64,000 nucleotides of DNA from Candidatus Onthoplasma faecipullorum (GTDB taxonomy: Bacteria > Bacillota > Clostridia > Christensenellales > UBA1242), in contig DWVI01000005.1 in the NCBI GenBank assembly GCA_019120295.1, positions 955 to 64,954 on the forward strand, read 5' to 3'. The position numbers and the translations under genes were made by a program. Under the pieces are notes generated by a model. That model was not told where the DNA came from. It was given only the letters and a program-made list of their open reading frames with translations, and did not search any database. The first letter of the stretch is position 1. Each line of letters starts with the position of its first letter. Of this stretch, positions 32,695 through 47,762 are shown piece by piece.

Positions 32695-33732
32695 TTAAAA
32701 ATTGAAATTTAAATATAAATAATTAGACATATCAAACGCAAAATTTTTATCTATCATTTTCTTTGCTATTTTACATTGATTTGATATTCTTTTCCCCTGA
32801 AATAGTGGATCGATATATCGAACTTTTGCCTTGATACGAACTGTATAGACATCTTTTGGTTTTTCTTTTGAAATATTTACGCGTTTTGCATTTTGCCACA
32901 TAGAAAAAACTTCTTTATATTTTGAATTTTTGATTAAGTCAATAATTTCACTTTCTTTCATCTGATATAAATCATCGATTGTAACAAGGTTTTCATTATT
33001 CAATTTTTTCATAATGTCTGCAAGAAACTGCATGCTAAACCTTGTGTTATCATCTCTATATATTATAGATAACTTATTCGTTACACTAACAAATTTTCTA
33101 GCAATGTTTTTAGTTTTAAAACCTAATTCTTCCTCTCCGTTCTCATTTCTTTGAATTTCAATATCTTCATATATTTGCTTAACGTCTTCTAGTTTTGCGA
33201 TGTTATACAAAAATAATGAATTTGATAGCGAATATTCTAACCTATCAGCAGAAAGTTTAGGCGTTTCATTATCTGCAATAGGATAAATGTGATAGTCAGC
33301 AACTTCACCTATTTTAATATTATCTCTTTTTAACAAAGCCATTATTTCTTTTGAATTATGAATAATAGTTTTGGTTAAACTCTCTGTTGATTCTTGCTTT
33401 AAATAATCACCATTCATAAAATCTACGCAATGTTTAAAAACCGGAGTTGATATATCGTGAAAAAGCCCTGCAAGTGTTTGCTTTTTATCTTTAGTAAAAT
33501 GCCACACTATTAAAGCCACCGCAATAGAATGGTCTAATGTGTTATAATTTGTTTTTATATTAAACATTTTTGAATAAATTTTACCACATGACACACTAAC
33601 ATATTGCAGATACAACATTTCTTTCGTGTTGATATATTCATTAAGCCAAATTGGAAAATTGTTTTCTAGTATTTCAAAATACTCTCTTTTGCTTATATCT
33701 ACACCCTTTATATAATCCATAAACAACTCCAT
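32695..33732 (-). CDS. HD-domain metal-dependent phosphohydrolase
   Basis: H...HD signature (DHSIAVALIVWH ... GLFHDISTP) and DRLEYS downstream. Confidence 0.65.
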   Translation of the reverse strand: MELFMDYIKGVDISKREYFEILENNFPIWLNEYINTKEMLYLQYVSVSCGKIYSKMFNIKTNYNTLDHSIAVALIVWHFTKDKKQTLAGLFHDISTPVFKHCVDFMNGDYLKQESTESLTKTIIHNSKEIMALLKRDNIKIGEVADYHIYPIADNETPKLSADRLEYSLSNSLFLYNIAKLEDVKQIYEDIEIQRNENGEEELGFKTKNIARKFVSVTNKLSIIYRDDNTRFSMQFLADIMKKLNNENLVTIDDLYQMKESEIIDLIKNSKYKEVFSMWQNAKRVNISKEKPKDVYTVRIKAKVRYIDPLFQGKRISNQCKIAKKMIDKNFAFDMSNYLYLNFNF

Positions 33733-34099: not shown

Positions 34100-34451
34100 T
34101 GGTGGAGATGATGAGACTCGCACTCATGTCCTAATCAAAACAAATTCCATACACTACACGTTTAGTCAATGACTGCATTCGCCTTAATCAACTAACATTG
34201 ACACTTGATTAAAACTACCCTATTTAAACCTTTACATGCGCTAGGGAACGCATATAAATGTTCGCTGATAAACGACGTCAAGTTTAGCGTATCAGCACCG
34301 CTAAGTTGACGGCTCACGGCACTAAGCAGCGTAAGCTAATTTATTGTTGTTTGCGTTTATTTGTTTCGTGCAAAACGAAAATGTATTTAACGTGCCACCA
34401 CACGACGTGCGTATAAAATTTCCTTTGACCAGTCGAAACTAATTCATCCCC
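34100..34451 (-). ncRNA. ssrA: tmRNA (SsrA), 352 nt
   Basis: The minus strand begins GGGGATGAATTAGTTTCGAC and ends GAGTCTCATCATCTCCACCA. The acceptor stem has a G3:U70 wobble (alanine identity). An internal tag ORF GCA AAC AAC AAT AAA TTA GCT TAC GCT GCT TAG (34354-34322) encodes ANNNKLAYAA. smpB and rnr lie upstream. Confidence 0.95.
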
Positions 34452-34459
34452 ATGTATTT

Positions 34460-34488
34460 ATTATATCATAAAATATAAAACTTTTCAA
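34460..34488 (-). promoter_or_regulatory. Sigma-A-type promoter of ssrA
   Basis: Minus strand TTGAAA (34488-34483), a 17-nt spacer, then TATAAT (34465-34460), 8 nt upstream of the GGGG 5' end. Confidence 0.7.
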
Positions 34489-34492
34489 TACC

Positions 34493-34517
34493 TTTTTGTT
34501 TTTTACCAAAAAAGAAC
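34493..34517. repeat. Left copy of the 25-bp direct repeat (putative att site)
   Basis: TTTTTGTTTTTTACCAAAAAAGAAC, identical to 47216-47240. It contains an internal dyad (GTTTTTT-ACC-AAAAAAGAAC). Confidence 0.85.
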
Positions 34518-34642
34518 TGTTATTTTATAATCTGAGTGTCAGTTAATGAATAAAACTGCACTCGCTTATCTTTGGTTATACTATATTGTTCGTGTAGTTT
34601 TGTCTTAACTGCGCGAATTTTTTAATAAAAGGGGGTGTGATT

Positions 34643-34870
34643 TTGGCGTTTAAAACAAGTAATGGCATTGTCTTACGTAATCCTGCCGAAAAAGCAAAAC
34701 GTTTTGCTAGGCAAATGAAAAGCGGTTGTGTACGTGAAACTGGCGAACAATTAAATTATGCTGGACTAAGTTATCGTGCTGGTTACCTTCAAGCAAGACA
34801 AGACAGTGCAAATGCGTATAATTCAAATTTACGCAAAAAAAAGACTCGCAAGCGCAAGTCTAGAAAATAA
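34643..34870 (+). CDS. Small, highly basic protein (possible DNA-binding protein)
   Basis: A TTG start 7 nt after an AAAGGGGG RBS (the track starts at GTG 34637). The C-terminus is NLRKKKTRKRKSRK. No family recognised. Confidence 0.55.
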   Translation: MAFKTSNGIVLRNPAEKAKRFARQMKSGCVRETGEQLNYAGLSYRAGYLQARQDSANAYNSNLRKKKTRKRKSRK

Positions 34871-34883
34871 AAGGAGTTGATTA

Positions 34884-35288
34884 TTGAAAAAACGTAGATT
34901 TATTCCTTGGGGGAGGACTTTAACTACTAATGATAAATATCTTAGTAGAAAGAAAACCAATTCAAATAAAGTAAGACCGGTAGTAGTTGTTGATAATTAT
35001 AAAGATAATTTAGGAGTTGTACCCCTTTCTTCGAGAAAAGGAAATAATAGAACTGATTTGCCTAAACGAAAAAATAAAAAAACCGGACAGAGAACTTATT
35101 ATAAGCATTATTTTGAAATTGAAGATAATGAAGGTCAACCTATAAGAGTAAATGAGAAATTTAAAGAAAATCATAAAAATATGGACTTATCTAGGGAAGA
35201 AGTTTTAGATATTCGTCAAAATATATTTACGAAAGCAAAAACAAAACAGAGAAATAAAAAATTATATGATAGGTTACATAGAAAGTGA
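34884..35288 (+). CDS. Basic protein with a PemK/MazF-like core segment
   Basis: A TTG start 7 nt after AAGGAG. KVRPVVVVDNYKDNLGVVPLSS resembles the K-x-RP-hhhh....hhh-P-h-[ST]-[ST] strand pair of the PemK/MazF fold. It has long Lys/Arg-rich insertions. Confidence 0.4.
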   Translation: MKKRRFIPWGRTLTTNDKYLSRKKTNSNKVRPVVVVDNYKDNLGVVPLSSRKGNNRTDLPKRKNKKTGQRTYYKHYFEIEDNEGQPIRVNEKFKENHKNMDLSREEVLDIRQNIFTKAKTKQRNKKLYDRLHRK

Positions 35289-35491
35289 TATAAAAAATGA
35301 CCGTGCTATGTGACGGTCGTGCTTATAAACAAGAGTTATAAGCCTTACACATAAAGTGTAGTTCATTAAAGAACAACATTATTATAGTGTAAAAAAATTA
35401 ATATGTCAACCCTTTTAAAGAAAATTATTCTAAAAATTTGAATGGTTTGGTTTAGTGGTTGCTCGACTGCGTTTGAAAATTTTTAGGATGA

Positions 35492-35507
35492 GTTGCGACG
35501 TCGCAAC
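35492..35507. repeat. Perfect 16-bp palindrome GTTGCGACGTCGCAAC in the 397-bp non-coding region of the element
   Basis: Read directly. GC-rich in an AT-rich context, with additional hairpins at 35299-35318, 35321-35343 and 35346-35360. Confidence 0.8.
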
Positions 35508-35685
35508 AAAATTACTTTGCTTGTTATTTTGCTATATTCAACTATCTTAATAAAACTATAAGACCTATCAAAGTGCATAGGCGCACAATCAATAGTTTAA
35601 GTTGATTAAAGGTTATTCTTCCTTAAAAAGAATCAGATTATTAAAATATTAAAATTAAATTTTTATTAAATAAGGAGATTAAATT

Positions 35686-36030
35686 ATGGCATTTGTTAAA
35701 CCTATTAGAGAAATTGGATTAGTTATTAGTAAAAAAATCAATGAAGCAAGAGAAGCAGGAACGAGTTTAGACGGAACTAGGAAATGGGACGCACGTCCAC
35801 AAGAATTTATTGTTGAAGTTGTTAGTTGTGATGAAGATGATTTTGATTTAGATAAAGGTATTTTAAATGGTACTCGCGCCGAATATAAAGTCGATGAAGC
35901 AACCTATAAAAAGGTTAAATTCGGCGATTGGGCAAGTGTTAAGTACACAGCAAGTCAGTTTGGAGATAAATTGACAATTAAGCCTGAGTCTTTTGTCCTT
36001 CGAGAAAATAAAGCAAAGGAGAGTAAATAG
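35686..36030 (+). CDS. Hypothetical 114-aa protein; its position fits an ssDNA-binding (gene V-like) protein
   Basis: Strong RBS (AAGGAGA), acidic/beta-rich, immediately upstream of the small hydrophobic ORFs. The functional call is positional only. Confidence 0.3.
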   Translation: MAFVKPIREIGLVISKKINEAREAGTSLDGTRKWDARPQEFIVEVVSCDEDDFDLDKGILNGTRAEYKVDEATYKKVKFGDWASVKYTASQFGDKLTIKPESFVLRENKAKESK

Positions 36031-36032
36031 TT

Positions 36033-36212
36033 TTGAAAATATTTTTAGGCATTGTTATAGGAATTTTAATTGCTGTTGCTATTACTCTATTGACAGTTGC
36101 CATTGGTTGCGCTGTTAATGGTATTGGTTTTAGCGAACAAATTGTTGACTGGTTTGGAAATTCCACTGAAACGGTAGAACAAGCACGAATTTTAATGTCA
36201 ATGAGAATTTAG
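36033..36212 (+). CDS. Small hydrophobic protein, 59 aa (candidate inovirus coat protein); not in the ORF track
   Basis: A TTG start 9 nt after GGAGAG. The translation is MKIFLGIVIGILIAVAITLLTVAIGCAVNGIGFSEQIVDWFGNSTETVEQARILMSMRI, with one TM helix. Confidence 0.6.
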   Translation: MKIFLGIVIGILIAVAITLLTVAIGCAVNGIGFSEQIVDWFGNSTETVEQARILMSMRI

Positions 36213-36228
36213 CACAAGGTGATGTTCT

Positions 36229-36390
36229 ATGAAAAAATTACTAATTATATTAGCAATCATTGTGTTAGTAGTGTTATTTGGAACGTGGCCGTTGTCCGTT
36301 TTATCAAAAATAGTTGAATGGTTGGCAACTGGTATTCGCTGGTTGGCAAAAGCACTAGATTGGTTTGATTGGAACGGACTATTAATTTAA
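36229..36390 (+). CDS. Small hydrophobic protein, 53 aa (candidate inovirus coat protein); not in the ORF track
   Basis: ATG start with an upstream AAGGTGA. The translation is MKKLLIILAIIVLVVLFGTWPLSVLSKIVEWLATGIRWLAKALDWFDWNGLLI, an N-terminal TM/signal followed by an amphipathic Trp-rich helix. Confidence 0.6.
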   Translation: MKKLLIILAIIVLVVLFGTWPLSVLSKIVEWLATGIRWLAKALDWFDWNGLLI

Positions 36391-36454
36391 GACAAAGAGC
36401 ACTATTGATTTGGGGTTTACTTCAATTAGATAGTGCTTTTTTAAAAGGAGAATT

Positions 36455-37720
36455 ATGGGCAAATTTTTATCAGTTATATGGCGAATAATTGGTATTTTAT
36501 CAGTGTTAGTTATTACTTGTTTTATATGGTTATATTTCTTTGTGCCGAAACCTGAAACTATATCAACGAGTTATGTAAATTCGTTAACTGCATTTGACGG
36601 CGAAGATACGGCGCTAGAAGATTCTACTATTGTTTTAGATATACAACTTATGAAAAATGCAGATAATAGTGGCGAAAAATTATTTGAAGTTGCGTTTACA
36701 ACATATCAAGGCGAAAATACTGACGAGATATTTACAAAAGGTGTTCAAGTTGTAGGTGATTTTAATACTAGTGTATATCGAAGTCATAGAACAACAAAAT
36801 GGAAATTTTGGATTTTAGAAACTTATAATATTTGGTACGACATATCAATAGATAATTTATATTCTTATGATATTTCTTATGATAAAGGTGCCGGTATTGC
36901 TTATGCATCGCCTACTTCATTAAACAATTCAAGTTCTTTTATTGTTTCGGTTGGTAATGGCGAAAATATGAGATTAGCAAAACTTGAATTTAAAAATGAA
37001 GTTGTTGACGACAAATATTATGTAGGTAAAGGTTATGAATCTTCTTCAATTATTCCATACGATTCAATTTATTCTTTGTGCGGTTTAAATTATATGCTTT
37101 CAGCAATATATAATTCTGTTAATTCTTTGAATGCTGGAACGTCTTATATAACATTTGATTTATCAGAGTTTTTCAACGTTTATATTCAAGACGATGACGG
37201 ACAGTACAATATTTTAACGCAAGATACTCAATTTACATACGTTACTGCGCGAGTGAATGTTGAAGATAATGGAATTACAACTCGAACTCAATCAATGTTT
37301 GGTATGGTTGCTGAAAATGACGGCTCTATTTCATTTGAGATTGATGACAGCGAAAAATTATTTTGGAAAGCATATGAAAATGTATATATAACTGATTGTT
37401 TTGATACACGAGAATCTAGTTATTATAATGGCACACTGTTATCTATAAACAATGAAACCATAACTAAGTACAAAGATTATGAGAACTTACGTATACATTT
37501 AACGATTGATTTATCTAAGTATGAGAATGTTATAGGAATAGACGCATTTGGTTTGGATGGACTGAATTATTATGACATAACAATTATTGGTGGCTCACAA
37601 GACTTTTACTTTATGTCAAATAGTTTGACAAATACAAAAGTCAATAATATCTATCACTCAGACAACATTAATGTTGTTATCTATGATGACGTGGATGTCA
37701 ATGTAAAGGCGGTGGCATAA
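36455..37720 (+). CDS. N-terminally anchored 421-aa protein (candidate minor virion or adsorption component)
   Basis: TM anchor VIWRIIGILSVLVITCFIWLYFFV; the remainder is predicted extracytoplasmic. No family recognised. Confidence 0.5.
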   Translation: MGKFLSVIWRIIGILSVLVITCFIWLYFFVPKPETISTSYVNSLTAFDGEDTALEDSTIVLDIQLMKNADNSGEKLFEVAFTTYQGENTDEIFTKGVQVVGDFNTSVYRSHRTTKWKFWILETYNIWYDISIDNLYSYDISYDKGAGIAYASPTSLNNSSSFIVSVGNGENMRLAKLEFKNEVVDDKYYVGKGYESSSIIPYDSIYSLCGLNYMLSAIYNSVNSLNAGTSYITFDLSEFFNVYIQDDDGQYNILTQDTQFTYVTARVNVEDNGITTRTQSMFGMVAENDGSISFEIDDSEKLFWKAYENVYITDCFDTRESSYYNGTLLSINNETITKYKDYENLRIHLTIDLSKYENVIGIDAFGLDGLNYYDITIIGGSQDFYFMSNSLTNTKVNNIYHSDNINVVIYDDVDVNVKAVA

Positions 37721-38244
37721 TGGAAAATATGAAAACAAGTGAATTTATTGTTTGGTTATTGTGTCTTGTTGGCGCTGTATTGAGTGGTTTTTGGATATTT
37801 CGAACTTATACTGCTGATAGTGAAATTATAGGAAATATTCAACAAACATCTAGTAATTTGGTTTTTATCATTCAATCAGAAACAGTTGTAATGCAACAAG
37901 ACCAAGAATATACCAATAAATATTATACAAGTAAAAAGTTTTCGTCAGTGTATCAAGTTGATTCAACTTTTGACGCAGAGAAATATGATTATGAATTTAT
38001 TTTGAATGACCGTTGTTTTGCTAGTACAAAATTTGAAAATGGTCTTTTGGAATGTAATTTAGAAACAACTTTTGTTAACACTAATGGTCAAGATTTATTT
38101 ACTGATACATTGTATATTACTATCAATTTTTATAGTGGTAGCACAGTGTTAGATATGTATACACTAGGTGGTGCTACTGCAAACGCATATTGGCTAAGTT
38201 ATTTTAATTCTTATGGTTTCGATATGCGAGTTTATAAATTATAA
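37720..38244 (+). CDS. N-terminally anchored 174-aa protein, unknown function
   Basis: TM FIVWLLCLVGAVLSGFWIF; the start overlaps the stop of the preceding gene (ATAATG). Confidence 0.5.
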   Translation: MENMKTSEFIVWLLCLVGAVLSGFWIFRTYTADSEIIGNIQQTSSNLVFIIQSETVVMQQDQEYTNKYYTSKKFSSVYQVDSTFDAEKYDYEFILNDRCFASTKFENGLLECNLETTFVNTNGQDLFTDTLYITINFYSGSTVLDMYTLGGATANAYWLSYFNSYGFDMRVYKL

Positions 38245-38256
38245 GGAGATTATTTT

Positions 38257-41154
38257 ATGACAAAAAAAATAATTGCAATAGTTGTCAGCATACTTGCAAT
38301 AACTGCCATAGGTTGTTTTGTCGGTTTAAATTGGAAATCGATTAAAGCAATGTTGAGTGGTGCACAAATATACACTGCTGAACAAATGGAAGAAAGTTAT
38401 AATCAAGGTTATGCTGACGCAAATACAAATGAAGATACATATTTACAACAAATAGATTATTATAAAAATTTAGTTGAAGATAATGAATTAGAAATTGAAA
38501 ATTTAAATAATGAAATTACTAATTTAACAAATACAAATGATTCTTATCAATCTCAAATTACAAATTTAAATGGAATTATTGAAGAAAACGAAAATACTAT
38601 TGAAAGTTTACAATCAACAATTAGTGATAATAATACAACAATATCTGGTTTAAATACTCAAATTAGTGGTTTAAATAACGAAATTGATAGTTTAGAAAGT
38701 GATATCGAAGATTTACAAAATGAATTGAGTCAAGCAGGAAAAGATTATCAAATATTACAAGCAGAGTTAACAACAAAAACAAATCAAGTTATTTCATTAC
38801 AAAATCAAGTAAATAATTTGCAAAAATTAGTTAATCAATTAAACGCAACAAATGAGTTAAATTTAACTACTATTTCAACATTAAATTCACAAATCGAAAC
38901 TTTAAATAGTCAAATTAGTGATTTAACATATCAAATAAATAATAATGATTCTACTGTTGCAAGTTTAAATAACCAAATAGCACAATTACAAGAATCTATA
39001 TCATATTATGAGAACTATATTTCAAATTTAGAAAGTGAAACACAAGTTGTTGTTACATTCGAATTTGACGGAAGTGTATACAATATTCAAATAGTTAATA
39101 AAGGCGCAACTGTATCGGTAGTTAACCCTACTTCAACTGATTATGTTCAATTTAATTATTGGACAATCAACGAAGAACAAATTGATTTATCTAGTTATAC
39201 ATTTAACACCAACACAAAAGTTGTTGCTGACGTAACTTATAGTTATGACGTTAAATTCTACGTTGATAATGCTGTTCATAATTCACAAATTATTCAATCT
39301 GGAAATAAAGCAACTACTCCAACCGTTCCAACAAAAACTGGTTATACATTCTTAGGTTGGTCGTTAAATGGTAGTGATATTGTTGATTTAAGCACTGTTA
39401 CAATTACAGAAAATACAAATTTTTATGCTTTATTTGTTCAACAATTTACAGTACAATTTGTTTATGAAGATGACGTTGTTTCAACTCAAACAATAAACAA
39501 TGGTGCCTATGCAACAAGTCCATCCGTTGAAAGCACAACATATAAAGTGTTTAATGGTTGGAAAGTTAATGGAACTAGTGTTGACGTTGAAACTTATAAG
39601 ATTGTAGGCGCAACAACATTTGTTGCTGATATTACTTATAAATATGACGTAACATTTATGGTTGACGACGAAGAATACGACACGCAAATAGTTACAAGCG
39701 GACAATACGCAACTGTTCCAACCGCTCCAACAAAAGACGGTTACATATTTAAAGGTTGGTCATTAAATGGCAGTGATATTATTGATTTAAGTGGAAATTC
39801 TATAACTTCAACAACAACTTACTATGCTGTATTTGAAGTTTTGTATGCAAGCGTAGAATATGATAATAGCACATCATATTACAATAATTTTAATGATGCT
39901 TGGAATTATGCTTGTACATTGAGCACTACTAGTTCAAAATATCCAACATTAACATTGTATAAAGATATTGACGCAGAAAGTATGTATAATGATAATGTTT
40001 ATGATTATTTATATGTTCCAAGTGGTAAGTATATCGAATTAGATTTAAATGGTCATATTGTTACGGCACAATCAGCAAGTACTTATTCTATTTTAATGAA
40101 TGGAAAATTAACTATAAATGACTCTATTGGTACTGGTAGTATTGTTGGTAAATACATAAAAGCAAATACAAATAGTCTTTTAGTAATTGACGGTGGAACA
40201 ATTAATTCGTATATAGATATGATTGGTTATTCTAGTTTATATATGAATGGCGGTAAAATTATTACAGCAAGTTCTAATGGTGCAGTATATTTACATTCTC
40301 CATCTTCTTCCATTTCGTTTTATATGACCGGCGGAGTTATCACAAATACTGCTGGTATTGGTGTGCGCTTAGTTGGTTCAACTTCGGCAAAAGTTAATTT
40401 CACTATGTCTGGCGGAACAATTAGTGATTGTGCGGGTCGTGGTATTAATGCTGGTGGTTATACAACAGTTAAAATATCAAATGGAATAATTGAAAATAAT
40501 AGTGGCGGTGGTATTTTAGTATCTGGTTCATCAACTTCTAAGTTAACAACATTAACAATAACTGGTGTTACAATACAAAATAATACAGCAAGTTATGGCG
40601 GTGGTATTTATTTAGGAAGTTGCACTGAGTCTAGTATATCTAATGCCAATATTCTTAATAATACGGCAACAACTTCTGGCGGTGGTATTTATTTAAATTC
40701 TAGTTCTTCTTCAAGATTTTACACAACTATAGAATCTTCTATTATTCAAAATAATTCTGCTGCAACTGGTGGTGGAATTTACAACGGCGCTTATTCTTCA
40801 ATAACTTCTTTGCAAGATGTTCAAATTATAAATAATAATGCTACTAATAATGGTGGTGGTTTATATTCGGCATATAATTCTCACACATCATTAACGGGAG
40901 CAACTAAAATTATTAATAATACCAAAGGAGAAACAGATAATAATGTGTACATACCAGCAGATGATTGCACAATATCAATACAGTATGATTTTACTGGAGA
41001 ATTAGGTTTTACACATAAAGATGGTGCTGGAAAAGTTGCGAGTTTGACATCTTCAGTATCAGGTGCGGTTTGTACAACTGGTACTTATTATAGCGATATT
41101 ACTAGTTATACTATTAGTGTTGATACCACTAATAGACGCGTGGATTTGAGTTAG
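38257..41154 (+). CDS. 965-aa anchored multidomain adhesin-like protein (candidate receptor-binding, pIII-analogous protein)
   Basis: N-terminal TM, then about 200 aa of Asn/Gln/Leu heptad coiled coil (LN.QI..LN..I..L). Next come four Listeria-Bacteroides-type repeats (GYTFLGWSLNGSDIVDLS, GYIFKGWSLNGSDIIDLS, FNGWKVNG, FNYWTINEE). The C-terminal part is a beta-helix with PMP-like GGGIY/GGGLY repeats. Confidence 0.6.
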   Translation: MTKKIIAIVVSILAITAIGCFVGLNWKSIKAMLSGAQIYTAEQMEESYNQGYADANTNEDTYLQQIDYYKNLVEDNELEIENLNNEITNLTNTNDSYQSQITNLNGIIEENENTIESLQSTISDNNTTISGLNTQISGLNNEIDSLESDIEDLQNELSQAGKDYQILQAELTTKTNQVISLQNQVNNLQKLVNQLNATNELNLTTISTLNSQIETLNSQISDLTYQINNNDSTVASLNNQIAQLQESISYYENYISNLESETQVVVTFEFDGSVYNIQIVNKGATVSVVNPTSTDYVQFNYWTINEEQIDLSSYTFNTNTKVVADVTYSYDVKFYVDNAVHNSQIIQSGNKATTPTVPTKTGYTFLGWSLNGSDIVDLSTVTITENTNFYALFVQQFTVQFVYEDDVVSTQTINNGAYATSPSVESTTYKVFNGWKVNGTSVDVETYKIVGATTFVADITYKYDVTFMVDDEEYDTQIVTSGQYATVPTAPTKDGYIFKGWSLNGSDIIDLSGNSITSTTTYYAVFEVLYASVEYDNSTSYYNNFNDAWNYACTLSTTSSKYPTLTLYKDIDAESMYNDNVYDYLYVPSGKYIELDLNGHIVTAQSASTYSILMNGKLTINDSIGTGSIVGKYIKANTNSLLVIDGGTINSYIDMIGYSSLYMNGGKIITASSNGAVYLHSPSSSISFYMTGGVITNTAGIGVRLVGSTSAKVNFTMSGGTISDCAGRGINAGGYTTVKISNGIIENNSGGGILVSGSSTSKLTTLTITGVTIQNNTASYGGGIYLGSCTESSISNANILNNTATTSGGGIYLNSSSSSRFYTTIESSIIQNNSAATGGGIYNGAYSSITSLQDVQIINNNATNNGGGLYSAYNSHTSLTGATKIINNTKGETDNNVYIPADDCTISIQYDFTGELGFTHKDGAGKVASLTSSVSGAVCTTGTYYSDITSYTISVDTTNRRVDLS

Positions 41155-41972
41155 TGATTACAATAATCTTTGCTCCACCACGTACAGGAAAGACTTGTTT
41201 AATGACACACTTATTAAATATGATTGCGTTTGATAGAAACCGAACACGTGCTATGCAACAAGAAATATTATCTAAAAAACAAAATGGTTTTAAAAATATT
41301 AAGACTATACCTATTCATTGCGTTAGTGCTAATTATGACATTACATTGCGCAAGTTTGGGTATAGTCCACGGCATAGCCGTAGAATCAACCCTTTTAGGT
41401 TGGGTTTTGCAAACAAGTATGTTAAGACGCATTTTAATATACCATTTGAAGCAATAGGAATTACGGAAGGTCAAAAATATTTAAACAGCCGTATGTCAAT
41501 GTATTTTCCTGATTGGCAAAGCCGTTGGTATGAACAGCACGGACACGACGATATAGATATATTTATTGATACTCAACGACCTATGCTTATTGACGTGAAT
41601 ATTCGTGAACTTGCTTGTTTTATAGAAGTTATTTCATTAAAGGTTGAAAATGACGATTATGGAAGAGTTTGCAAACTTACTTGGAAAGTGCGAAAAATAG
41701 AAAATTCTTCACTATTTGATAAGTATATGGCAAGTGGGAAAAAAGACGATAGTTGTTATACAGAAGAAGAGATTGTTGCAGATTATAACGTATTTGCGTG
41801 TTATGATAGTCAATCTTGTAAACCTAAATTTTATCAAGGTCATATGGATGACGATTTTGATTTAGATTATTCAAGTGAAATTGAAGAAACATTGTTGGGT
41901 TATATTAAATTTTTGGAAGAATTTGACGATGAATTACCAGAAAATTTTTATCAAAAAAGAAAAGCGAGTTAA
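41154..41972 (+). CDS. Zot/pI-like P-loop NTPase (inovirus morphogenesis ATPase-like)
   Basis: N-terminal beta-strand plus Walker A (ITIIFAPPRTGKTC), Walker B-like AIGITEGQ, and a HGHDDIDIFIDTQRPMLIDVNIREL block resembling the Zot-family RH.G.D....TQ motif. The start overlaps the stop of the upstream gene. Confidence 0.6.
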   Translation: MITIIFAPPRTGKTCLMTHLLNMIAFDRNRTRAMQQEILSKKQNGFKNIKTIPIHCVSANYDITLRKFGYSPRHSRRINPFRLGFANKYVKTHFNIPFEAIGITEGQKYLNSRMSMYFPDWQSRWYEQHGHDDIDIFIDTQRPMLIDVNIRELACFIEVISLKVENDDYGRVCKLTWKVRKIENSSLFDKYMASGKKDDSCYTEEEIVADYNVFACYDSQSCKPKFYQGHMDDDFDLDYSSEIEETLLGYIKFLEEFDDELPENFYQKRKAS

Positions 41973-41974
41973 TT

Positions 41975-42325
41975 ATGAATTTTAATAAAAATAAGTTAAT
42001 AAATGCAGTTTTACGTAATTATTACAATACGTTTTCTTTTACATTAGATACAAGTGATTTTGTTCCGCAAAAGTTTAATAAAAAAATACATAATTATATT
42101 TATAAAAATATGAAGAAAAAATTTAAAGAGATTGATAAAGAAGATAAAAAATTTCAAAAAGAACTTAAACTTATAAATAAAGTTAAAAAAGAAAAAACGT
42201 TTAGTGTTAAATTATGTTTTATTATGTTAAAGCAAAAACTTAGATATTTATATTTAAAGAAAAAACATAGACTTTTAGATTATAAAGAAAATGAAAATTT
42301 AGAAATTAAAAATGAAGAAGAATAA
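41975..42325 (+). CDS. Lys-rich 116-aa protein, unknown function
   Basis: An ORF immediately after the ATPase; low-complexity basic composition. Confidence 0.4.
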   Translation: MNFNKNKLINAVLRNYYNTFSFTLDTSDFVPQKFNKKIHNYIYKNMKKKFKEIDKEDKKFQKELKLINKVKKEKTFSVKLCFIMLKQKLRYLYLKKKHRLLDYKENENLEIKNEEE

Positions 42326-42363
42326 AATTAATTTAAAAAAAGTTTTTTAATAGTGTTGTGCGT

Positions 42364-42444
42364 TGTGGATTAGTGGGTTAATCGAAGATTTATCCACTTA
42401 TCCATCGATTGTGGTATTGTGGTTAACTTAATAAGTTATCCATC
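42364..42444. promoter_or_regulatory. Cluster of DnaA-box-like 9-mers upstream of Rep
   Basis: Against TTATCCACA: 42390-42398 TTATCCACt (8/9); 42364-42372 reverse TaATCCACA (8/9); 42418-42426 reverse TTAaCCACA (8/9); 42398-42406 and 42436-42444 TTATCCAtc (7/9). Confidence 0.45.
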
Positions 42445-42482
42445 AATTCCACAGTCGACTTGCAACGCGAAGTAAAATCGGA

Positions 42483-42614
42483 CAATTTTCGTCTGCTCGA
42501 AAATTGAGTTTTGGGTTGGGTCCCAAAACGGTCCACCTATTGTGTAAACTATGCTTACAAGTCAAGTTTATAAAGAGTTGCAGTGGCGCGGGCGCGGTTT
42601 ACCCGCCCCGCCAC
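42483..42614 (+). other. Three stable hairpins (candidate replication origin or packaging signal)
   Basis: CAATTTTCG-6nt-CGAAAATTG (42483-42506); GTTTTGGG-6nt-CCCAAAAC (42508-42529); and the GC-rich GTGGCG(C)GGGCG-loop-CGCCCCGCCAC (42583-42614). Confidence 0.5.
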
Positions 42615-42678
42615 TACTCGACAATAGCAACACTTAACGGAATAAAAATTTAAAAAATTATAAGTATTGGAGAAGAAA

Positions 42679-43674
42679 ATGTTAGAAGAAAAATCTACAA
42701 CTTATAATTTATTTACTACTGAAAGGAAATATCGGCAAGATACATTGGTTAGTTATTACTTTCAGAAGAATAAAAAAGTTATAAAAAATTGTTCTCCAAT
42801 AGATATAGACGGAGAACGTTATAGATTAAATCACGAAAGTGGCGAAATTACTACGTATTCTAAAAAAGATATATTGCATTCATATGGTGTTAGTTTACGT
42901 AGAACAAAAATTATGATGGATATGTTGCTAACAATGAATGACTTTGATTGGTTTTGGACTTTAACTTTTGATAAGGAAAAAGTTGACCGAACAAATGATA
43001 AAGTTGTTTTCGATTGTTATAAAAAATACATTAACAACATTAAAAAGCAATATCCATCGTTTAAATATATGTGCTTTCCCGAAAGGCACGAAGATGGCTG
43101 TTTTCATTTTCACTTGTTAACTGCTGGACTCACACCTAAACAAATGGGTTTGGTAGACTCTGGAAAGGTTTGTTGTTCGTGGGCAGAAAAACGTTATAAC
43201 GGAATACGTTCACGTGAATATTATAATCGAACTAAACATTTGCACGAACACGAAATGAAAGAAACTGACGGCGAAACAATATATAACGCAAGCAATTTTA
43301 TTTATGGCTACACCACTGTTAGTAGAATAGTAAGTCGTGAACGTTGTAATAGTTATGTTAAAAAATATGTTGAGAAAGCATTAGGAAGTACTGAAATATT
43401 TAAGAAGAGATTTTATTATTCTTCAAATTTAAATGTTCCAAGTATTGTTAAACGTTTGATTGGTGCAGATTTTGAACACCCCTATGATATAGATAAAGTT
43501 AAAAATATTATTGATAATCCGATTGTTATAAACGCAAAATCTACACCGCATATAAATTACAATGTACTACAAGTGAAAATAGATAACGACATTAAACAAA
43601 ATATAGATAATGGTTTAATTCTATTGTCTGAGAAAGAAATTGAAGAATTAGGAGAGATATATGGGCTTTTTTAA
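42679..43674 (+). CDS. HUH-superfamily rolling-circle replication initiator (Rep)
   Basis: Motif I FWTLTF (42952-42969), motif II HFH within GCFHFHLL (43105-43113), motif III Y-VKK-Y within SYVKKYVEK (43354-43368). The start is placed at ATG 42679 after GGAGAAG (the track starts at TTG 42667). Confidence 0.75.
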   Translation: MLEEKSTTYNLFTTERKYRQDTLVSYYFQKNKKVIKNCSPIDIDGERYRLNHESGEITTYSKKDILHSYGVSLRRTKIMMDMLLTMNDFDWFWTLTFDKEKVDRTNDKVVFDCYKKYINNIKKQYPSFKYMCFPERHEDGCFHFHLLTAGLTPKQMGLVDSGKVCCSWAEKRYNGIRSREYYNRTKHLHEHEMKETDGETIYNASNFIYGYTTVSRIVSRERCNSYVKKYVEKALGSTEIFKKRFYYSSNLNVPSIVKRLIGADFEHPYDIDKVKNIIDNPIVINAKSTPHINYNVLQVKIDNDIKQNIDNGLILLSEKEIEELGEIYGLF

Positions 43675-43900
43675 TAGAAAACAAAAAAAGATTGCTTTAA
43701 AACATTCAAATTTTGTGTTGGAAAAATTATATCATATAAGTGAACAAAAATTGCACTATGCTTCATTATCTGGAAATGAAAAACAACTTAAAAAAGCAAT
43801 GAAACAACACGGCAATTATGAATATGCATTATTGTATAAAAACACACCTGAATATAAGAAGTTGGTTAGAAAAAATTTAAGGAGAAATAATGGAAAATAA
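43661..43900 (+). CDS. Small basic hypothetical protein (79 aa)
   Basis: An ORF overlapping the Rep stop; no motif recognised. Confidence 0.4.
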   Translation: MGFFNRKQKKIALKHSNFVLEKLYHISEQKLHYASLSGNEKQLKKAMKQHGNYEYALLYKNTPEYKKLVRKNLRRNNGK

Positions 43901-44264
43901 TTATTATATTAAACTTATGTTTTCTCTACCAAATAAAATTAAACATATTGATAATTTAATTACAATTCTATCTCGCAACAGTTATCTTTCAGTTGATACT
44001 GAAGCCTGCGTTGATTCTATTAGTAAATATATGTTAGAAAAGCAAAAACTAATAGATAAATTTCATAAATTAACTAATTTTTATTTAAATTTAGATAAAA
44101 AACTTGTTGATTGTGTAAATATGCGCTTTTGTTATCACTACTCAATTGAAGAGATAGTAGAAGAATTGAAAATATCTGAGCGAACTATTATGAGAAGAAT
44201 TTGTACAGTTAACAAAAAATTAAGAGAACTTTTAAATAAGGGGGAAACATATGGAAAACTTTAA
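43890..44264 (+). CDS. Sigma-70 region-4-like HTH regulator (ArpU/DUF1492-like phage transcriptional regulator)
   Basis: The C-terminal VNMRFCYHYSIEEIVEELKISERTIMRRICTVNKKLRELL fits the sigma region 4.2 HTH pattern. Confidence 0.5.
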   Translation: MENNYYIKLMFSLPNKIKHIDNLITILSRNSYLSVDTEACVDSISKYMLEKQKLIDKFHKLTNFYLNLDKKLVDCVNMRFCYHYSIEEIVEELKISERTIMRRICTVNKKLRELLNKGETYGKL

Positions 44265-44922
44265 TATACAAAATGAATTTGATTTTAAAGATAAAACTTT
44301 AAATAATTTGATTTGTGATTTACAAACTTGTTATTTTAATCAGCAAAATAATTTTTGTAAAATTTGTTTTACTATTTTTAAAATAAGTCAATATTTTGAT
44401 AACAATTACATAAATGTAGAACAAAAAACAAATGAATATTATGACAAATACAAATTACTTGCCAAGTTTGGTTTTGATAAAACAGCGATATCTCGAATGA
44501 CTAATTGTTATTTAAAATTTATGACTGGTGGTTATGACGGAAGCGCTGTAAGTTTAAAGTCTTGGTATGAAGGCTTTTCTCCGTCAAAATTGTTTGAGTT
44601 ATTAAAATTATCTAATTTAACTTGTGAAGATTGTATTGATAAAAAATTAATTGTACCATCTATGACTGTTAAAGAGATAAGAAACTATATTAAACAATTA
44701 AATGACGGAAAAGATAAAGCGGAAAAAGTTGTTGAAGAACTTAACAATGACAATGACACGGAAGAGATTCCAATGGCATATAACCCTAAACAACATTATG
44801 ACATCGAGTATTTTGACGGTTTATCTAAAAAGCAGTTAGTTAATTGTATTTGGGAATTGCAAAAGTATTGTGAAAAACTTGCTGGAAAAATAAAAATAAC
44901 TAAGTCTAAGGTGGTGGCATAA
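44251..44922 (+). CDS. Hypothetical 223-aa protein, possible DNA-binding protein
   Basis: FGFDKTAISRM and SPSKLFELLKL segments resemble HTH/ParB-like helices; weak. Confidence 0.35.
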   Translation: MENFNIQNEFDFKDKTLNNLICDLQTCYFNQQNNFCKICFTIFKISQYFDNNYINVEQKTNEYYDKYKLLAKFGFDKTAISRMTNCYLKFMTGGYDGSAVSLKSWYEGFSPSKLFELLKLSNLTCEDCIDKKLIVPSMTVKEIRNYIKQLNDGKDKAEKVVEELNNDNDTEEIPMAYNPKQHYDIEYFDGLSKKQLVNCIWELQKYCEKLAGKIKITKSKVVA

Positions 44923-45170
44923 TGGGAATGTTTGATAATGGTATTTACAAAACAACTGATTATTATTGCACTCGAAACGACTATTTAGACATTTTTAAAC
45001 TTAGTGATATTGATTCTAAATTTATGAAAAAACATCATATATCTGGCACAGTCAAAGAATTTAAAAATAAAGTTAGAAAAAGTAAACCATTTGCAAGAGT
45101 TAAGACTGGAAATTATAGATATAGTTATAGAATGACACCAATTTATGATATAAAAAATTTTAAAAAATAG
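44922..45170 (+). CDS. Hypothetical 82-aa protein
   Basis: An ORF translationally coupled to the previous gene (TAATG). Confidence 0.4.
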   Translation: MGMFDNGIYKTTDYYCTRNDYLDIFKLSDIDSKFMKKHHISGTVKEFKNKVRKSKPFARVKTGNYRYSYRMTPIYDIKNFKK

Positions 45171-45181
45171 GAGAAATTATT

Positions 45182-45346
45182 ATGGAAAACAAATTAAATC
45201 AAATTGAATATATAAACAAATTAGAACTAGAAAATAAACAATATAAACAACAAATAAGTGAATTGTATAAGGAATTATTTAAGATACAAGTACAAGTAGA
45301 TTTTTTAAGTATTAGATTAATGAAATTGAAAAATGAAAGTTGTTAG
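45182..45346 (+). CDS. Small coiled-coil protein, 54 aa; not in the ORF track
   Basis: ATG preceded by TAGGAGA. The translation is MENKLNQIEYINKLELENKQYKQQISELYKELFKIQVQVDFLSIRLMKLKNESC. It is followed by a strong terminator. Confidence 0.45.
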   Translation: MENKLNQIEYINKLELENKQYKQQISELYKELFKIQVQVDFLSIRLMKLKNESC

Positions 45347-45350
45347 ATTT

Positions 45351-45384
45351 AAAAAACTAGGTTTTAATTTGACCTAGTTTTTTT
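45351..45384. terminator. Bidirectional rho-independent terminator
   Basis: Perfect 12-bp arms AAAAAACTAGGT / ACCTAGTTTTTT with a 9-nt loop, between convergent genes. Confidence 0.75.
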
Positions 45385-45907
45385 CTATTTCATAAGCACT
45401 TAAAATTATTTGAAAGTGTTCATTGCTATTGTCAGATAGTTGCATATCAACTAGTGACGCATATGCAAATGCTGGTGTGTCTATATTTTTAATGCGTATC
45501 GAAGAATCAATTTTATAAATTTTTATTTTATTTTCTTTTGTTAAATTGACATATTCTCCATTATAATAAATTGTTAAATTAACTTGTATTGTATACTCTT
45601 CATTATAGATAGGAATTTCGTTAGTAAAGTTCGAGAAGTAACCATTTTTTGATTCTTCTAAGTTTGTTTTATATATTGTGCTAACGATCGAACCATATTC
45701 ACAAATATTATAGGTTTTGTTTTTATAGTCGATTATATCTATTTTTAATTGTCGCATTTCATATGTATTGTTATTATTTGCATTTGTTGACGAAACATAT
45801 ATTTTGGAAACTTGAATATAATCTAAATTTGAATTTTTACATCCAACAATTAAAAAGCAATTTATTAAGATAAAAGCAATTATTAAACTCTTAAATGTTT
45901 TTTTCAT
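45374..45907 (-). CDS. Lipoprotein, unknown function (only minus-strand gene in the element)
   Basis: Signal peptide with lipobox LIVGC (MKKTFKSLIIAFILINCFLIVGCKNS). Confidence 0.6.
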   Translation of the reverse strand: MKKTFKSLIIAFILINCFLIVGCKNSNLDYIQVSKIYVSSTNANNNNTYEMRQLKIDIIDYKNKTYNICEYGSIVSTIYKTNLEESKNGYFSNFTNEIPIYNEEYTIQVNLTIYYNGEYVNLTKENKIKIYKIDSSIRIKNIDTPAFAYASLVDMQLSDNSNEHFQIILSAYEIEKN

Positions 45908-46030
45908 AGATTTAATTCCTTTTTACTAATTATACTGAATATTTTTAACAAATTATTAAATTGACAAAATTAGACAAAATTCGACATTGAAATTATTAAA
46001 AACATATTTTATTATTTATTAGGAGAGATT

Positions 46031-47023
46031 ATGAAACGAAAGATAAAAAGATATTACAAAGTAGCATATTTAGCAGAAGAAAAATATAAAGTATTAAAAC
46101 TATTAAAGCATTCTACAATCGAATTTGTGGCGCATAGGTATCATTGCAGTATACGTTCGATTTATCGTTGGAAAAGACAGTTTAACGGAACTATTGAAAG
46201 TTTAGAGAATAAATTTTCACGGAAAAATATGTTACATCCAAATCGACATACTGACGAAGAAATAAAGCATATAAAAGATTTAATTAGGCGCAACCCTAAC
46301 ATAGGACTAAATGAATTATATGGTAAATTGCGTTTAAATTATTCTTATGCTCGCCATCCTATGAGTTTGTATAATTTTTTGCGTAAACACGGTTGGTACG
46401 GAAACGTTAAGAAGAAAAATAGATATAAGCCACAACCATATGACACACCTATTCATATAGGCGAAAAGTGGCAGTTAGACGTTAAGTTTGTACCACGTAG
46501 TTGTTATGTCGGACAATATAAGGAAGAAAAACGTTTTTATCAATACACAGTTATTGACGAAGCAACAAGGGAACGTTTTATATACCCTTATGAAGAACAG
46601 TGTCCGCAATCTACTATTGATTTTATACAACGTGCTATTGTTTATTTTGGTTATCAACCAAATATTATTCAAACAGATAACGGCGCAGAATTTACATATA
46701 CTAGGCAAACAAAACACGACCAAGAGCATTTATTTGATAAATATTGTAGATTGCATAAAATTGAACATAAACTTATTCGTCCGCGCACTCCGCGTCATAA
46801 TGGCAAAGTGGAACGTTCGCATAGAAGTGATAACGAAAGATTTTATCGTTATCTAAAATTTTATTCATATGATGACTTGTTAATACAAATGAAAGCATAT
46901 TTGCGCAAGTCAAACAATATACCTATCTCAGTTTTGAAATCGAGAGACGGAAAAATTGATTGGTTAACACCAAAACAAAAACGTAAGGAGTTATTATTGT
47001 TAGATTGGGGTGTTCTTGAATAG
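46031..47023 (+). CDS. DDE transposase/integrase, IS481-like (IS3 superfamily, rve core)
   Basis: N-terminal HTH (CSIRSIYRWKRQF) and a DDE core: WQLDVKF, IQTDNGAEF, RPRTPRHNGKVERSHRS. A single ORF of 330 aa, as in IS481-family elements. Confidence 0.8.
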   Translation: MKRKIKRYYKVAYLAEEKYKVLKLLKHSTIEFVAHRYHCSIRSIYRWKRQFNGTIESLENKFSRKNMLHPNRHTDEEIKHIKDLIRRNPNIGLNELYGKLRLNYSYARHPMSLYNFLRKHGWYGNVKKKNRYKPQPYDTPIHIGEKWQLDVKFVPRSCYVGQYKEEKRFYQYTVIDEATRERFIYPYEEQCPQSTIDFIQRAIVYFGYQPNIIQTDNGAEFTYTRQTKHDQEHLFDKYCRLHKIEHKLIRPRTPRHNGKVERSHRSDNERFYRYLKFYSYDDLLIQMKAYLRKSNNIPISVLKSRDGKIDWLTPKQKRKELLLLDWGVLE

Positions 47024-47215
47024 GAACTTTATATTTAATAATTTTTTAAAGACAATCAATTTGTCTTAGTTTTTCATATTGTTTGGGCGAACTTCCCCTA
47101 GGGGAAGTATTAGATAGAATAAAAAAATAAGCAGTAAACAACTAAATTTACTACTTTTTTAAAATTTTTTTAATTTTTTTTAAAAAACTTGTGTCAAACA
47201 GTTGACATATTTGCA

Positions 47216-47240
47216 TTTTTGTTTTTTACCAAAAAAGAAC
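47216..47240. repeat. Right copy of the 25-bp direct repeat (putative att site)
   Basis: TTTTTGTTTTTTACCAAAAAAGAAC, identical to 34493-34517. Confidence 0.85.
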
Positions 47241-47291: not shown

Positions 47292-47762
47292 TTAATATTG
47301 TTCAGCAAATTTTTGTTTGTTTGCGCGTTCAATATCACGCTGTTTGATTGTTTCACGTTTATCATATAATTTTTTACCTTTGGCAAGGTGAATTTCAACT
47401 TTTAAGTTACCCTTAACAAAATATGCTTTTGTTGGAACAAGTGTTAAATTCTCAGTTTCAATTTTCTTTTTTATTTTTCTAATTTCGTCTTTATGAAGCA
47501 ACAATTTTCTATCTCTTTTTTCGTCATGATTTTTGTTTGTGATGTATGCGTTATCATATGTTTTTATATAACTATTACGTAGAAAACATTCGTCATTTTT
47601 GATATAAGCATAGCAATCAGCAATAGAAAAATGACCCGCGCGGACAGATTTAATTTCTTCACCTGTTAGTACAATTCCTGCTTCAAAAGCATCTAGTAAA
47701 GTGTACTCAAATTTTGCGCGGTTATTTAAAAATAATTTTTGCTTTTCTTCATTTTTTTTCAT
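47292..47762 (-). CDS. smpB: SsrA-binding protein SmpB
   Basis: 156 aa with GIVLTGEEIKSVR, RDRKLLLHKDEI, LVPTKAYF and AKGKKLYDKRE motifs. Confidence 0.95.
   Translation of the reverse strand: MKKNEEKQKLFLNNRAKFEYTLLDAFEAGIVLTGEEIKSVRAGHFSIADCYAYIKNDECFLRNSYIKTYDNAYITNKNHDEKRDRKLLLHKDEIRKIKKKIETENLTLVPTKAYFVKGNLKVEIHLAKGKKLYDKRETIKQRDIERANKQKFAEQY

Follow-up and report, generated by a model that had tools for sequence, protein, structure and literature searches.

The stretch of DNA analysed here ("the window") comprises 64,000 nucleotides of contig DWVI01000005.1 (positions 955 to 64,954; assembly GCA_019120295.1) from Candidatus Onthoplasma faecipullorum, a chicken-gut member of the Christensenellales. 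It carries the host genes rnr, smpB and ssrA (the gene for tmRNA), which were located by ARAGORN, Rfam and Pfam (Table 1). A block of 12.7 kb separates smpB from ssrA. An earlier reading, made from the letters alone (referred to as the sequence-only reading), had described this block as an insertion that splits the smpB-ssrA pair and has perfect 25-bp direct repeats at both junctions. Both statements are borne out by the current analysis, in which the evidence is comparative throughout. We consider it likely that the block is a filamentous-phage-like (Tubulavirales, inovirus-like) prophage, which moves as a single unit by means of an IS481-like DDE transposase that it encodes itself, generates a target-site duplication (TSD) of about 25 bp and is targeted to sites upstream of promoters.

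The 25-mer (TTTTTGTTTTTTACCAAAAAAGAAC) occurs exactly twice in the window, once at each junction (34493-34517 and 47216-47240). The window holds no further copy with up to 3 mismatches, and shuffled sequences lead to an expectation of 0. When the insert and one copy of the repeat are removed in silico, a smpB-ssrA spacer of 117 bp (66 + 51) is left. The ssrA promoter (TTGAAA-17-TATAAT) is intact, as the sequence-only reading had stated. Open reading frames (ORFs) of at least 140 aa which lie outside the insert (2984-59478) are all on the minus strand, while those inside the insert are on the plus strand, with a sole exception (45374-45907). The sign of the GC skew inverts across the insert, so that the strand contrast between insert and flanks, which had also been described, is supported by the ORF map and by base composition.

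Empty alleles of this locus exist. Contigs which encode exactly the SmpB of the window were retrieved from 10 places (L numbers designate the loci compared). At nine of these (L001-L003 and L005-L010), smpB and ssrA are contiguous, the same genes follow downstream, and the 25-mer is present as a single copy. One of them (L009) matches the predicted empty site exactly. The remaining one (L004) is an occupied contig, which diverges directly after the 25-mer. Because the empty alleles have a single 25-mer, the 12.7-kb block is a recent, polymorphic insertion in Candidatus Onthoplasma faecipullorum, and its character as an acquired insertion is thus settled. A 42-mer from the left end of the element is absent from IMG/VR and from the GTDB representative genomes; the species representatives thus lack exactly this element. 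The sequence-only reading had raised the possibility that the 25-mer is a common intergenic repeat. This is not the case, as it is confined to the smpB-ssrA locus within 1.39 Mb of fetched loci.

The identical or a near-identical element was found at at least 11 other sites, each with a different flank. Left junctions elsewhere are covered by L018, L019, L020/L024, L022, L106, L107 and L109/L110, and right junctions by L012, L013, L014, L115/L116 and L118. At loci with a 100% identical transposase, the element ends with ...TATTTGCA (tip ...GTTGACATATTTGCA) and is followed by unrelated sequence each time. Its start, TGTTATTTT (TGTTATTTTATAATCTGAGTGTCAG...), is preceded by eight different host sequences. 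Since the element ends abut unrelated sequences elsewhere, the 25-mer belongs to the host DNA, which was duplicated, and not to the element. For two insertions, the junctions could be paired. Both have a 26-bp duplication that is unrelated to the 25-mer, CAAAATAAAATCTAATAAAATGTTGT in one case (L022 and L012) and TTTCATTACATATTTCATAAAATATT in the other (L020 and L014). The 25-mer is a target-site duplication made by a DDE transposase and not an att core. Among the contigs with a right junction, the 13,055-bp contig L115 was considered as a circular genome, but its right end continues into a host-like flank, which makes it another insertion site. L018 carries only the left 0.9 kb of the element (L018:2634-3535, corresponding to window positions 34515-35418), with a normal left junction and promoter geometry, followed by ABC-transporter genes. 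It is a truncated remnant or a rearrangement.

The sequence-only reading had likened the 25-mer, with its internal dyad, to the core site of a recombinase. Accordingly, an island or phage might have integrated by site-specific recombination, with the 25-mer as an att core common to element and chromosome and the dyad (TTTTTT-ACC-AAAAAA) as the recombinase-binding core. This would account for the perfect repeats at both junctions, for the precise restoration of the site upon removal of one copy and for the presence of the dyad inside the 25-mer. However, none of the ORFs in the insert gave a tyrosine or serine recombinase domain in profile searches; a DDE transposase is encoded instead. The behaviour of the element ends at other sites marks the 25-mer as host DNA, other insertions have different repeats of 25-26 bp, and the 26-bp duplications of the two paired insertions do not have a dyad in common. 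Neither does the 25-mer occur anywhere else in the related loci. We attribute practically no probability to integration at an att core. Of the earlier interpretation, the mobile insertion stands, while the recombinase core, a functional dyad and a special attachment site between smpB and ssrA are abandoned. The association with ssrA is incidental, this gene having one of the many promoters beside which the element lands. Integration into the 3' end of ssrA, as performed by phages and islands with a tyrosine integrase, and integration of CTXphi at dif by XerCD are both conservative site-specific recombination at one common sequence. These systems resemble the present case in having mobile DNA that adjoins ssrA, or filamentous phages as prophages. 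They differ from it because here there is DDE transposition, host DNA is duplicated, many sites are used, and the insertion is upstream of the ssrA promoter. The latter had been pointed out in the sequence-only reading and is confirmed by the geometry of the locus and by the empty alleles.

The transposase (330 aa) has a helix-turn-helix (HTH) and an rve domain (Pfam rve, 1.4e-15). It scores 168 bits (E=2.4e-49) with the NCBIfam IS481 model, which is below the curated cut-off of 224. The catalytic residues are D150, D216 and E261, and this DDE set is invariant across 25 homologues. A scan of the GTDB representative genomes with an alignment of the transposase returned 80 loci. Two of these, from Clostridia and Christensenella metagenome-assembled genomes (L026, L027), are related prophages of 10.9 and 10.4 kb with a transposase that is 82% identical and with 25-bp duplications. 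They have Zot, Rep and other genes in common with the element from the window. A further 15 are stand-alone insertion sequences (IS) of 1.11-1.28 kb (1114-1281 bp), which were found in Bacilli, "Tenericutes", Peptoniphilus, Ihubacter and others. Their transposases are 50-59% identical to that of the window, they have the same HTH + rve architecture, and their ends are TGT/TG...CA. The IS relative L058 scores 182 bits with the NCBIfam IS481 model.

Duplication lengths of the relatives were read after their ends had been set to TG...CA. Perfect direct repeats flank all 17 delimited relatives, with a length of 25 bp in 12 cases, 26 bp in four cases and 24 bp in one case. These lengths indicate that this transposase lineage staggers its cut of the target by about 25 bp (24-26), with repair leaving the 25-bp repeat of host DNA. 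The inverted repeats of the IS relatives are TGTAGnGTTACAATTGATGTGACAC at the left end (IRL) and, given as reverse complement, TGTATAATTGTAAATGATGTGAGAC at the right end (IRR). The phage ends (TGT...GCA; Table 1) align with these in three places, namely the tip, nt 9-14 and approximately nt 19-25. Since the outer ends of the phage match the inverted repeats of the IS relatives, the transposase acts on the ends of the whole phage.

A different arrangement would result if the transposase gene were part of a conventional IS that lies inside the prophage at its right end, and if the prophage had integrated by other means (such as host XerCD or homologous recombination), so that the 25-bp repeat would be unrelated to the transposase. 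A 26-nt imperfect inverted repeat (45936-45961 and 47033-47058) does enclose the transposase gene, the spacing of 1123 bp being IS-like, and it has been stated that selfish and domesticated inovirus transposases cannot be distinguished by sequence alone (Roux et al. 2019, PMC6813254). As an IS boundary, this inner repeat was rejected. It lacks the conserved inverted-repeat motifs, is not flanked by a duplication and is not kept in L026 and L027. It is the outer ends of the 12.7-kb unit that resemble IS inverted repeats, the duplication has the length that is typical for stand-alone members of the lineage, and the whole unit rather than a 1.1-kb part is found at new sites. A nested IS is thus very unlikely, and we retain the reading of a phage that is mobilised as a whole.

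Two contigs from human faeces, deposited as "Bacteriophage sp.", contain IS relatives with transposases that are 38-43% identical to that of the window: L121 (MT838633.1), with an imperfect duplication of about 25 bp (GTTCTGAGG[G/T]TCCAAATTGAG[G/A]C), and L120 (MT836237.1), with clear inverted repeats and no detectable duplication. Both had been candidates for related filamentous phages. They hold IS relatives only and have no circular junction.

The targets were analysed for ten independent phage-type insertions, reading outward from the left tip. The order is the same in all ten: the IRL tip is followed by the duplicated DNA (25-26 nt), a gap of 4 nt that is usually NNTA, a -35 hexamer, a spacer of 17-18 nt and a -10 hexamer. 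The -35 hexamer is TTGACA in six cases, TTGAAA in two, and TTTACA and TTGTAT in one case each, nine of the ten matching the consensus at 5-6 of 6 positions. The -10 hexamers match at 4-6 of 6 positions and often have TGn in front. Without exception, the -35 hexamer is 29-31 nt from the tip, on the IRL side, and the promoter is directed away from the element. In the window, 25 nt and then GGTA separate the element tip from the -35 box of ssrA. At L106, it is the promoter of the rpmH-rnpA-yidC operon that is targeted. Such gene contexts are in keeping with genuine promoters. A promoter-like match of at least 9/12 at this register is seen for nine of the ten insertions, compared to 2.8% of random host positions (P ~1e-13); a match of at least 10/12 is seen for eight (P ~1e-17). 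Nine of the 15 stand-alone IS relatives show the same geometry on one side (six at IRL, three at IRR; P ~1e-8). As judged by this regularity, target choice is non-random: the IRL is set 25-26 nt plus 4 nt upstream of the TTGACA-like -35 box of an outward-directed promoter of the sigma-70 type. The promoter retains both boxes together with the 29 bp of native DNA that precede the -35 box, which makes this a safe-harbour insertion.

It might be argued that transposition is real and promoters are not recognised as such, the enzyme having a preference for AT-rich or bent DNA or for a TTGACA-like word, with the association brought about by selection against intragenic insertions. In favour of this, the duplicated segments have 80-92% A+T, about 40% of the IS relatives lack a promoter at the expected position, and the evidence comes from surviving insertions rather than from de novo events. 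However, this does not account for a spacing of 29-31 nt in ten of ten phage insertions, always on the IRL side, nor for the -10 box that follows 17-18 nt past the -35 box and is often TG-extended. Selection alone cannot fix a register within 1 nt. Furthermore, the plain TTGACA word is frequent in coding DNA (0.005 per position). We regard an enzyme that does not recognise promoters as improbable and keep to promoter targeting.

A small protein resembling sigma-70 region 4, which is encoded in the element, was considered as targeting factor and was rejected. L026 and L027 lack its gene, the IS relatives lack any accessory gene, and the geometry is the same. As the geometry is kept without accessory genes, the specificity must come from the transposase itself or from a host factor. 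The literature search retrieved no description of promoter-upstream targeting for transposase-bearing filamentous phages and none of base-precise, oriented insertion upstream of promoters for a bacterial DDE element. Such targeting appears undescribed, and so does the combination of a long duplication with a transposase-bearing filamentous phage.

At the site in the window only, the duplicated host DNA provides a fair -35 box (TTACCA) 17 nt 5' of the TATAAT of the IRL (34503-34531, plus strand; 10/12). In this lysogen, the resulting hybrid promoter might drive the phage genes at the left end. A hybrid promoter as a rule for the integrated state was rejected, as the match at the other nine sites is only 2-3/6.

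The features of the locus are listed in Table 1. All ORFs of the insert are open under genetic code table 11. For the two basic proteins of 77 and 134 aa, the protein of 114 aa and the lipoprotein, profile searches retrieved no family match. The 134-aa protein is identical in 61 collection blocks. It is also 100% identical in a second element type (L015, L017, L021, L023), in which the left 1.5 kb are common with the phage at 90-92% identity (e.g. L015:2642-4145, window 34523-36047) and are followed by genes for a 119-aa protein and a 684-aa protein and, on the opposite strand, a UDG gene. The 114-aa protein is encoded where filamentous phages have the gene for their single-stranded DNA (ssDNA) binding protein, and this position suggests the same function. 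The two small hydrophobic proteins, which are candidate coat proteins, have no homology match. The 965-aa protein has a coiled coil, Flg_new repeats (PF09479, 2.4e-23) and a beta-helix (PF13229, 3.7e-9). In tblastn, the Zot-like ATPase matches the protein annotated as Zot in bajarodino virus 12 with E=9e-19 and a coverage of 83%; it also matches the Zot-like family phrog_197 (3.8e-5). Rep matches PF23343 (2.2e-10) and phrog_3419 (2.4e-13), has HUH and YxxxY motifs and is similar to the Rep of 26 faecal inoviruses (tblastn). The hairpin-bearing region in front of rep is a candidate replication origin or packaging signal. The protein resembling sigma-70 region 4 is likely a transcription regulator. 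The palindrome between the transposase gene and the IRR is identical in L026, while L027 has CTTCCACTAGTGGAAG, a compensatory double change by which the palindrome is kept. It is thus probably functional as a hairpin or binding site, e.g. a terminator, an origin or a packaging signal.

Table 1. Features of the element and of the adjoining host genes (positions refer to the window).
Feature	Position	Strand	Evidence	Remark
ssrA (tmRNA)	34100..34451	-	ARAGORN; Rfam RF00023, 152 bits	host gene adjoining the insertion
ssrA promoter, TTGAAA-17-TATAAT with TG extension	34460..34488	-	promoter scan, 11/12	targeted promoter, directed away from the element
left TSD copy, 25 bp of host DNA	34493..34517		single copy in empty alleles	about -40 to -64 of the ssrA promoter
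mobile element, probable transposable inovirus-like prophage, 12,698 bp, TG...CA ends	34518..47215	+	missing in empty alleles; ends set by junctions elsewhere	
IRL TGTTATTTTATAATCTGAGTGTCAGT	34518..34543	+	same tip after eight different host flanks; aligns with IRL of IS relatives (TGTAGnGTTACAATTGATGTGACAC)	
two small, very basic proteins, 77 and 134 aa	34637..35288	+		left-end module common to a second element type
114-aa protein	35686..36030	+	tblastn, 37-67% to L026, L027, L030	kept in related prophages
two small hydrophobic proteins, 59 and 53 aa	36033..36390	+	transmembrane or signal-like segment; expected position; gene calls in related contigs	candidate coat proteins
three membrane/surface proteins, 421, 174 and 965 aa	36455..41154	+		candidate minor coat/adsorption proteins
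Zot/pI-like P-loop morphogenesis ATPase, 272 aa	41154..41972	+	Walker A APPRTGKT	
hairpin-bearing intergenic region 5' of rep	42326..42666	+	stem-loops at 42483-42535	
rolling-circle replication initiator Rep	42667..43674	+	motifs FWTLTF, HFH, YVKKY	
small sigma-70 region 4-like protein	43890..44264	+	Pfam Sigma70_ECF, 23.1 bits; NCBIfam	absent from L026, L027
lipoprotein, signal peptide and LIVGC lipobox	45374..45907	-	translation	moron-like; only minus-strand gene
DDE transposase, 330 aa, HTH + rve, IS481-like	46031..47023	+		own promoter at 45987-46015
perfect 16-bp palindrome CTTCCCCTAGGGGAAG	47092..47107			between transposase stop codon and IRR
IRR TGTGTCAAACAGTTGACATATTTGCA	47190..47215	+	same tip before six different flanks; aligns with IRR of IS relatives	
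right TSD copy, 25 bp	47216..47240			
smpB	47292..47762	-	Pfam SmpB, 3.9e-51	host gene on the opposite flank of the insertion
rnr	48230..50437	-		

From these features, a mechanism can be proposed. The transposase would bind the element by a conserved block in the inner part of each end (about nt 15-25). It may itself recognise a TA-TTGACA-AA motif at the target (TATTGACAA), which resembles the TTGACA in its own IRR. Movement would be copy-out-paste-in via a double-stranded circle, as described for IS3-type enzymes. The same circle might also be the replicative form on which Rep drives the rolling-circle synthesis of ssDNA, which would be followed by Zot/pI-dependent extrusion of virions.

In all 18 delimited elements (the 17 relatives and that of the window), the IRR has an outward-directed TTGACA, TTTACA or TTGACT at nt 9-14 from its tip, and the IRL has an inward-directed TATAAT or TACAAT at nt 9-14. 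In the window, these are a -35-like TTGACA (47202-47207) and a -10-like TATAAT (34526-34531). In the integrated state, the -10 box of the IRL has no good -35 partner. If IRR and IRL were joined by a spacer of 0-2 bp, TTGACA and TATAAT would be 16 nt plus this spacer apart and would form a strong promoter that reads into the phage genes and is split upon integration. Junction promoters of this kind are known for IS911, IS30 and IS21. That such a promoter is rebuilt in the circle is conceivable, although we lean slightly towards doubting it. The sequence-only reading had also envisaged a circular junction through one copy of the repeat, and none was found in IMG/VR, JGI metagenomes or the fetched contigs. 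A circle or tandem junction would join ...GTTGACATATTTGCA to TGTTATTTTATAATC..., and it was searched for as IRR, 0-30 nt and IRL. The 21-mer from the IRR yielded one chance match in the JGI metagenomes (L113) and one related element in a contig that ends at the tip (L114). At L098:1697-1775 (Bacillales bacterium UBA7476), two different IS relatives are arranged head to tail, with exactly 25 bp (AAAAATTTCAATTTTTTTTCACAAA) from IRR tip to IRL tip. This spacer is not repeated on the outer flanks. The arrangement could result from end-adjacent targeting or could be a junction product, and it bears on the length of the spacer in a circle junction.

It is tempting to speculate further. A lineage of small IS481-like transposases may act as a molecular ruler that directly recognises the -35 region of bacterial promoters, using the same contacts as for the TTGACA of their own IRR. 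This would lead to oriented insertion with cuts about 4 and 29 bp upstream, and the 25-bp duplication would preserve the promoter and the UP-element region. A filamentous phage of gut Clostridia would have captured this enzyme as its integrase. Its early promoter would be split (-35 box in the IRR, -10 box in the IRL), so that it exists in the circle only and DNA topology sets the choice between a silent prophage and an active replicative form. Taken as a whole, this scenario is tentative, and we consider it rather doubtful.

Several points weigh against our interpretation. Searches of IMG/VR, of JGI metagenomes and of all fetched contigs yielded no junction of the phage, be it circular or head-to-tail; for this reason, copy-out, virion production and the junction promoter are unproven. 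The 25-bp spacer of L098, the sole IRR-IRL tandem among the IS relatives, would not form a junction promoter. The targeted promoters were called by consensus only, and the control with random positions includes coding DNA. Purifying selection would also enrich intergenic sites, yet it cannot explain the fixed spacing of 29-31 nt. The Zot-like protein has no match to Pfam Zot at E <= 0.01. Finally, its 12.7 kb put the element at the top of the size range of filamentous-phage genomes.

The element might instead be a cryptic transposon which does not form virions, carries decayed genes from a filamentous phage and spreads only within genomes or by hitch-hiking. In favour of this, no circular genome and no virome contig of the element was found, it is larger than most inoviruses, and there are both a truncated copy (L018) and a mosaic variant (L015 type). 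However, the phage-like ORFs are all intact, Zot, p116 and Rep are kept at 63-74% aa identity in related elements from other species, and numerous samples and sites have near-identical copies. This points to horizontal spread and to purifying selection that acts on the phage module, and a transposon devoid of virions is in our opinion unlikely. We retain the interpretation as a transposable filamentous phage.

Long duplications in the IS481/IS1202 superfamily and filamentous phages with a transposase are already known. The latter are represented by Vespertiliovirus (Plectroviridae; Spiroplasma phages SpV1-R8A2B, SpV1-C74 and SkV1), which resembles the current element as a filamentous ssDNA phage that has a DDE transposase and is found at many chromosomal sites. 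According to the ICTV, the encapsidated genome of Vespertiliovirus is a circular transposition intermediate (PMC8295915; PMC8140453), which is analogous to the dual role proposed here for the circle. The transposase core shows weak similarity to SpV1-type transposases (28-32% identity, E ~1e-7). Vespertiliovirus has a transposase in place of Rep, whereas the element from the window has both. Its Spiroplasma hosts are wall-less and read UGA as Trp; the host here belongs to the Christensenellales, and the ORFs are open under code 11. No 25-bp duplication and no promoter targeting was found described for Vespertiliovirus in the literature searched.

In the phage collection, the nearest relatives of Rep are from "bajarodino virus" and "Dulem virus", inoviruses of the Tubulavirales which stem from the faeces of rodents and lemurs, with 26-32% identity and E-values down to 4e-17. 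The nearest relative of Zot (30% identity, E=9e-19) is also from this group. The genomes of these viruses are circular (4.7-9.8 kb), and their Zot...Rep layout is similar. They differ in being episomal circles of much smaller size, and no match to the transposase from the window was found in them.

The IS481 family provides the best model for the transposase, and its likeness extends to the size of the IS relatives (about 1.1 kb) and their TGT/TG...CA ends, as members of the family have 5'-TGT...ACA-3' ends and a length of about 1-1.3 kb. Annotated plasmid homologues of the transposase all belong to the IS481 family, with at most 30% identity. The IS481 members in ISfinder have duplications of 2-15 bp, mostly 6 bp (PMC10045372), in contrast to the 24-26 bp of the present lineage. 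That length class is shared with the IS1202 subgroup, which has duplications of 24-29 bp, while the ISAjo2/ISAba32 subgroup targets dif/pdif (bioRxiv 10.1101/2022.12.17.520857; PMC10132070; PMC10045372). The ISAjo2 group, which has a short duplication, inserts in one orientation, 5 bp from XerC sites (bioRxiv 10.1101/2022.12.17.520857; PMC10132070). A fixed distance from a protein-binding site follows the same logic as the fixed distance from the -35 box, so that the superfamily has a precedent for oriented targeting. IS1202-type transposases have 394-507 aa and their elements 1.3-2 kb, which differs from the 330 aa and about 1.1 kb seen here. Membership in the IS1202 family was rejected, as the transposase scores 28.8 bits with NF033594 (cut-off 250), compared to 490 for the ISAjo2 transposase, and BLASTP to the latter yields E=0.007 over 37 residues. 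Harmer et al. reported that no targets were found for the IS1202 group with long duplications. Kojima described that duplication lengths in the superfamily step by about 10 bp (about 5, 15 and 25). With its 25 bp, the present lineage forms a new branch that fits these steps.

Roux et al. 2019 (PMC6813254) described transposases in inovirus genomes and could not separate those used by the phage from parasitic ones. For one lineage, the question whether the transposase is a parasite or the integration machinery is answered by inverted repeats and a duplication that bracket the whole phage. The duplication class of about 25 bp, which so far had been associated with the larger transposases of the IS1202 type and with rare IS481EU copies, is extended to a compact IS481-like lineage of 1.1 kb. 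The long-duplication class is also given its first target, a fixed position upstream of the -35 box. In bacteria, this corresponds to the safe-harbour strategies of Ty1/Ty3 or Tn7. As a compact system with a single protein, the lineage lends itself to studies of how a transposase sets a stagger of two and a half helical turns. For genome annotation, 25-bp direct repeats near promoters of Bacillota should be regarded as footprints of this IS/phage lineage and not as att sites.

A few observations concern the host genes around the insertion. Just downstream of ssrA (25801-32499, minus strand), a subtilase of 2232 aa (Peptidase_S8) with 14 MBG (YGX-type) repeats is encoded, which is kept in all examined strains. 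The gene between ssrA and the subtilase gene (32695-33732, minus strand) has alleles for 345 aa and for 341 aa among the strains (window, L001-L007), and its product has a faint HD-domain match. Upstream of rnr, some strains (L001:1-7023 and L010:1-7023) have a block with phi29_gp9_C-like, collagen-repeat, Gp49/HTH and SecB-like genes. This block stands in place of the ackA-rpmF-PLD-AP endonuclease-RluD genes found in the other strains and in the window. It is located near a tRNA cluster and is probably a prophage, representing a second polymorphic region.

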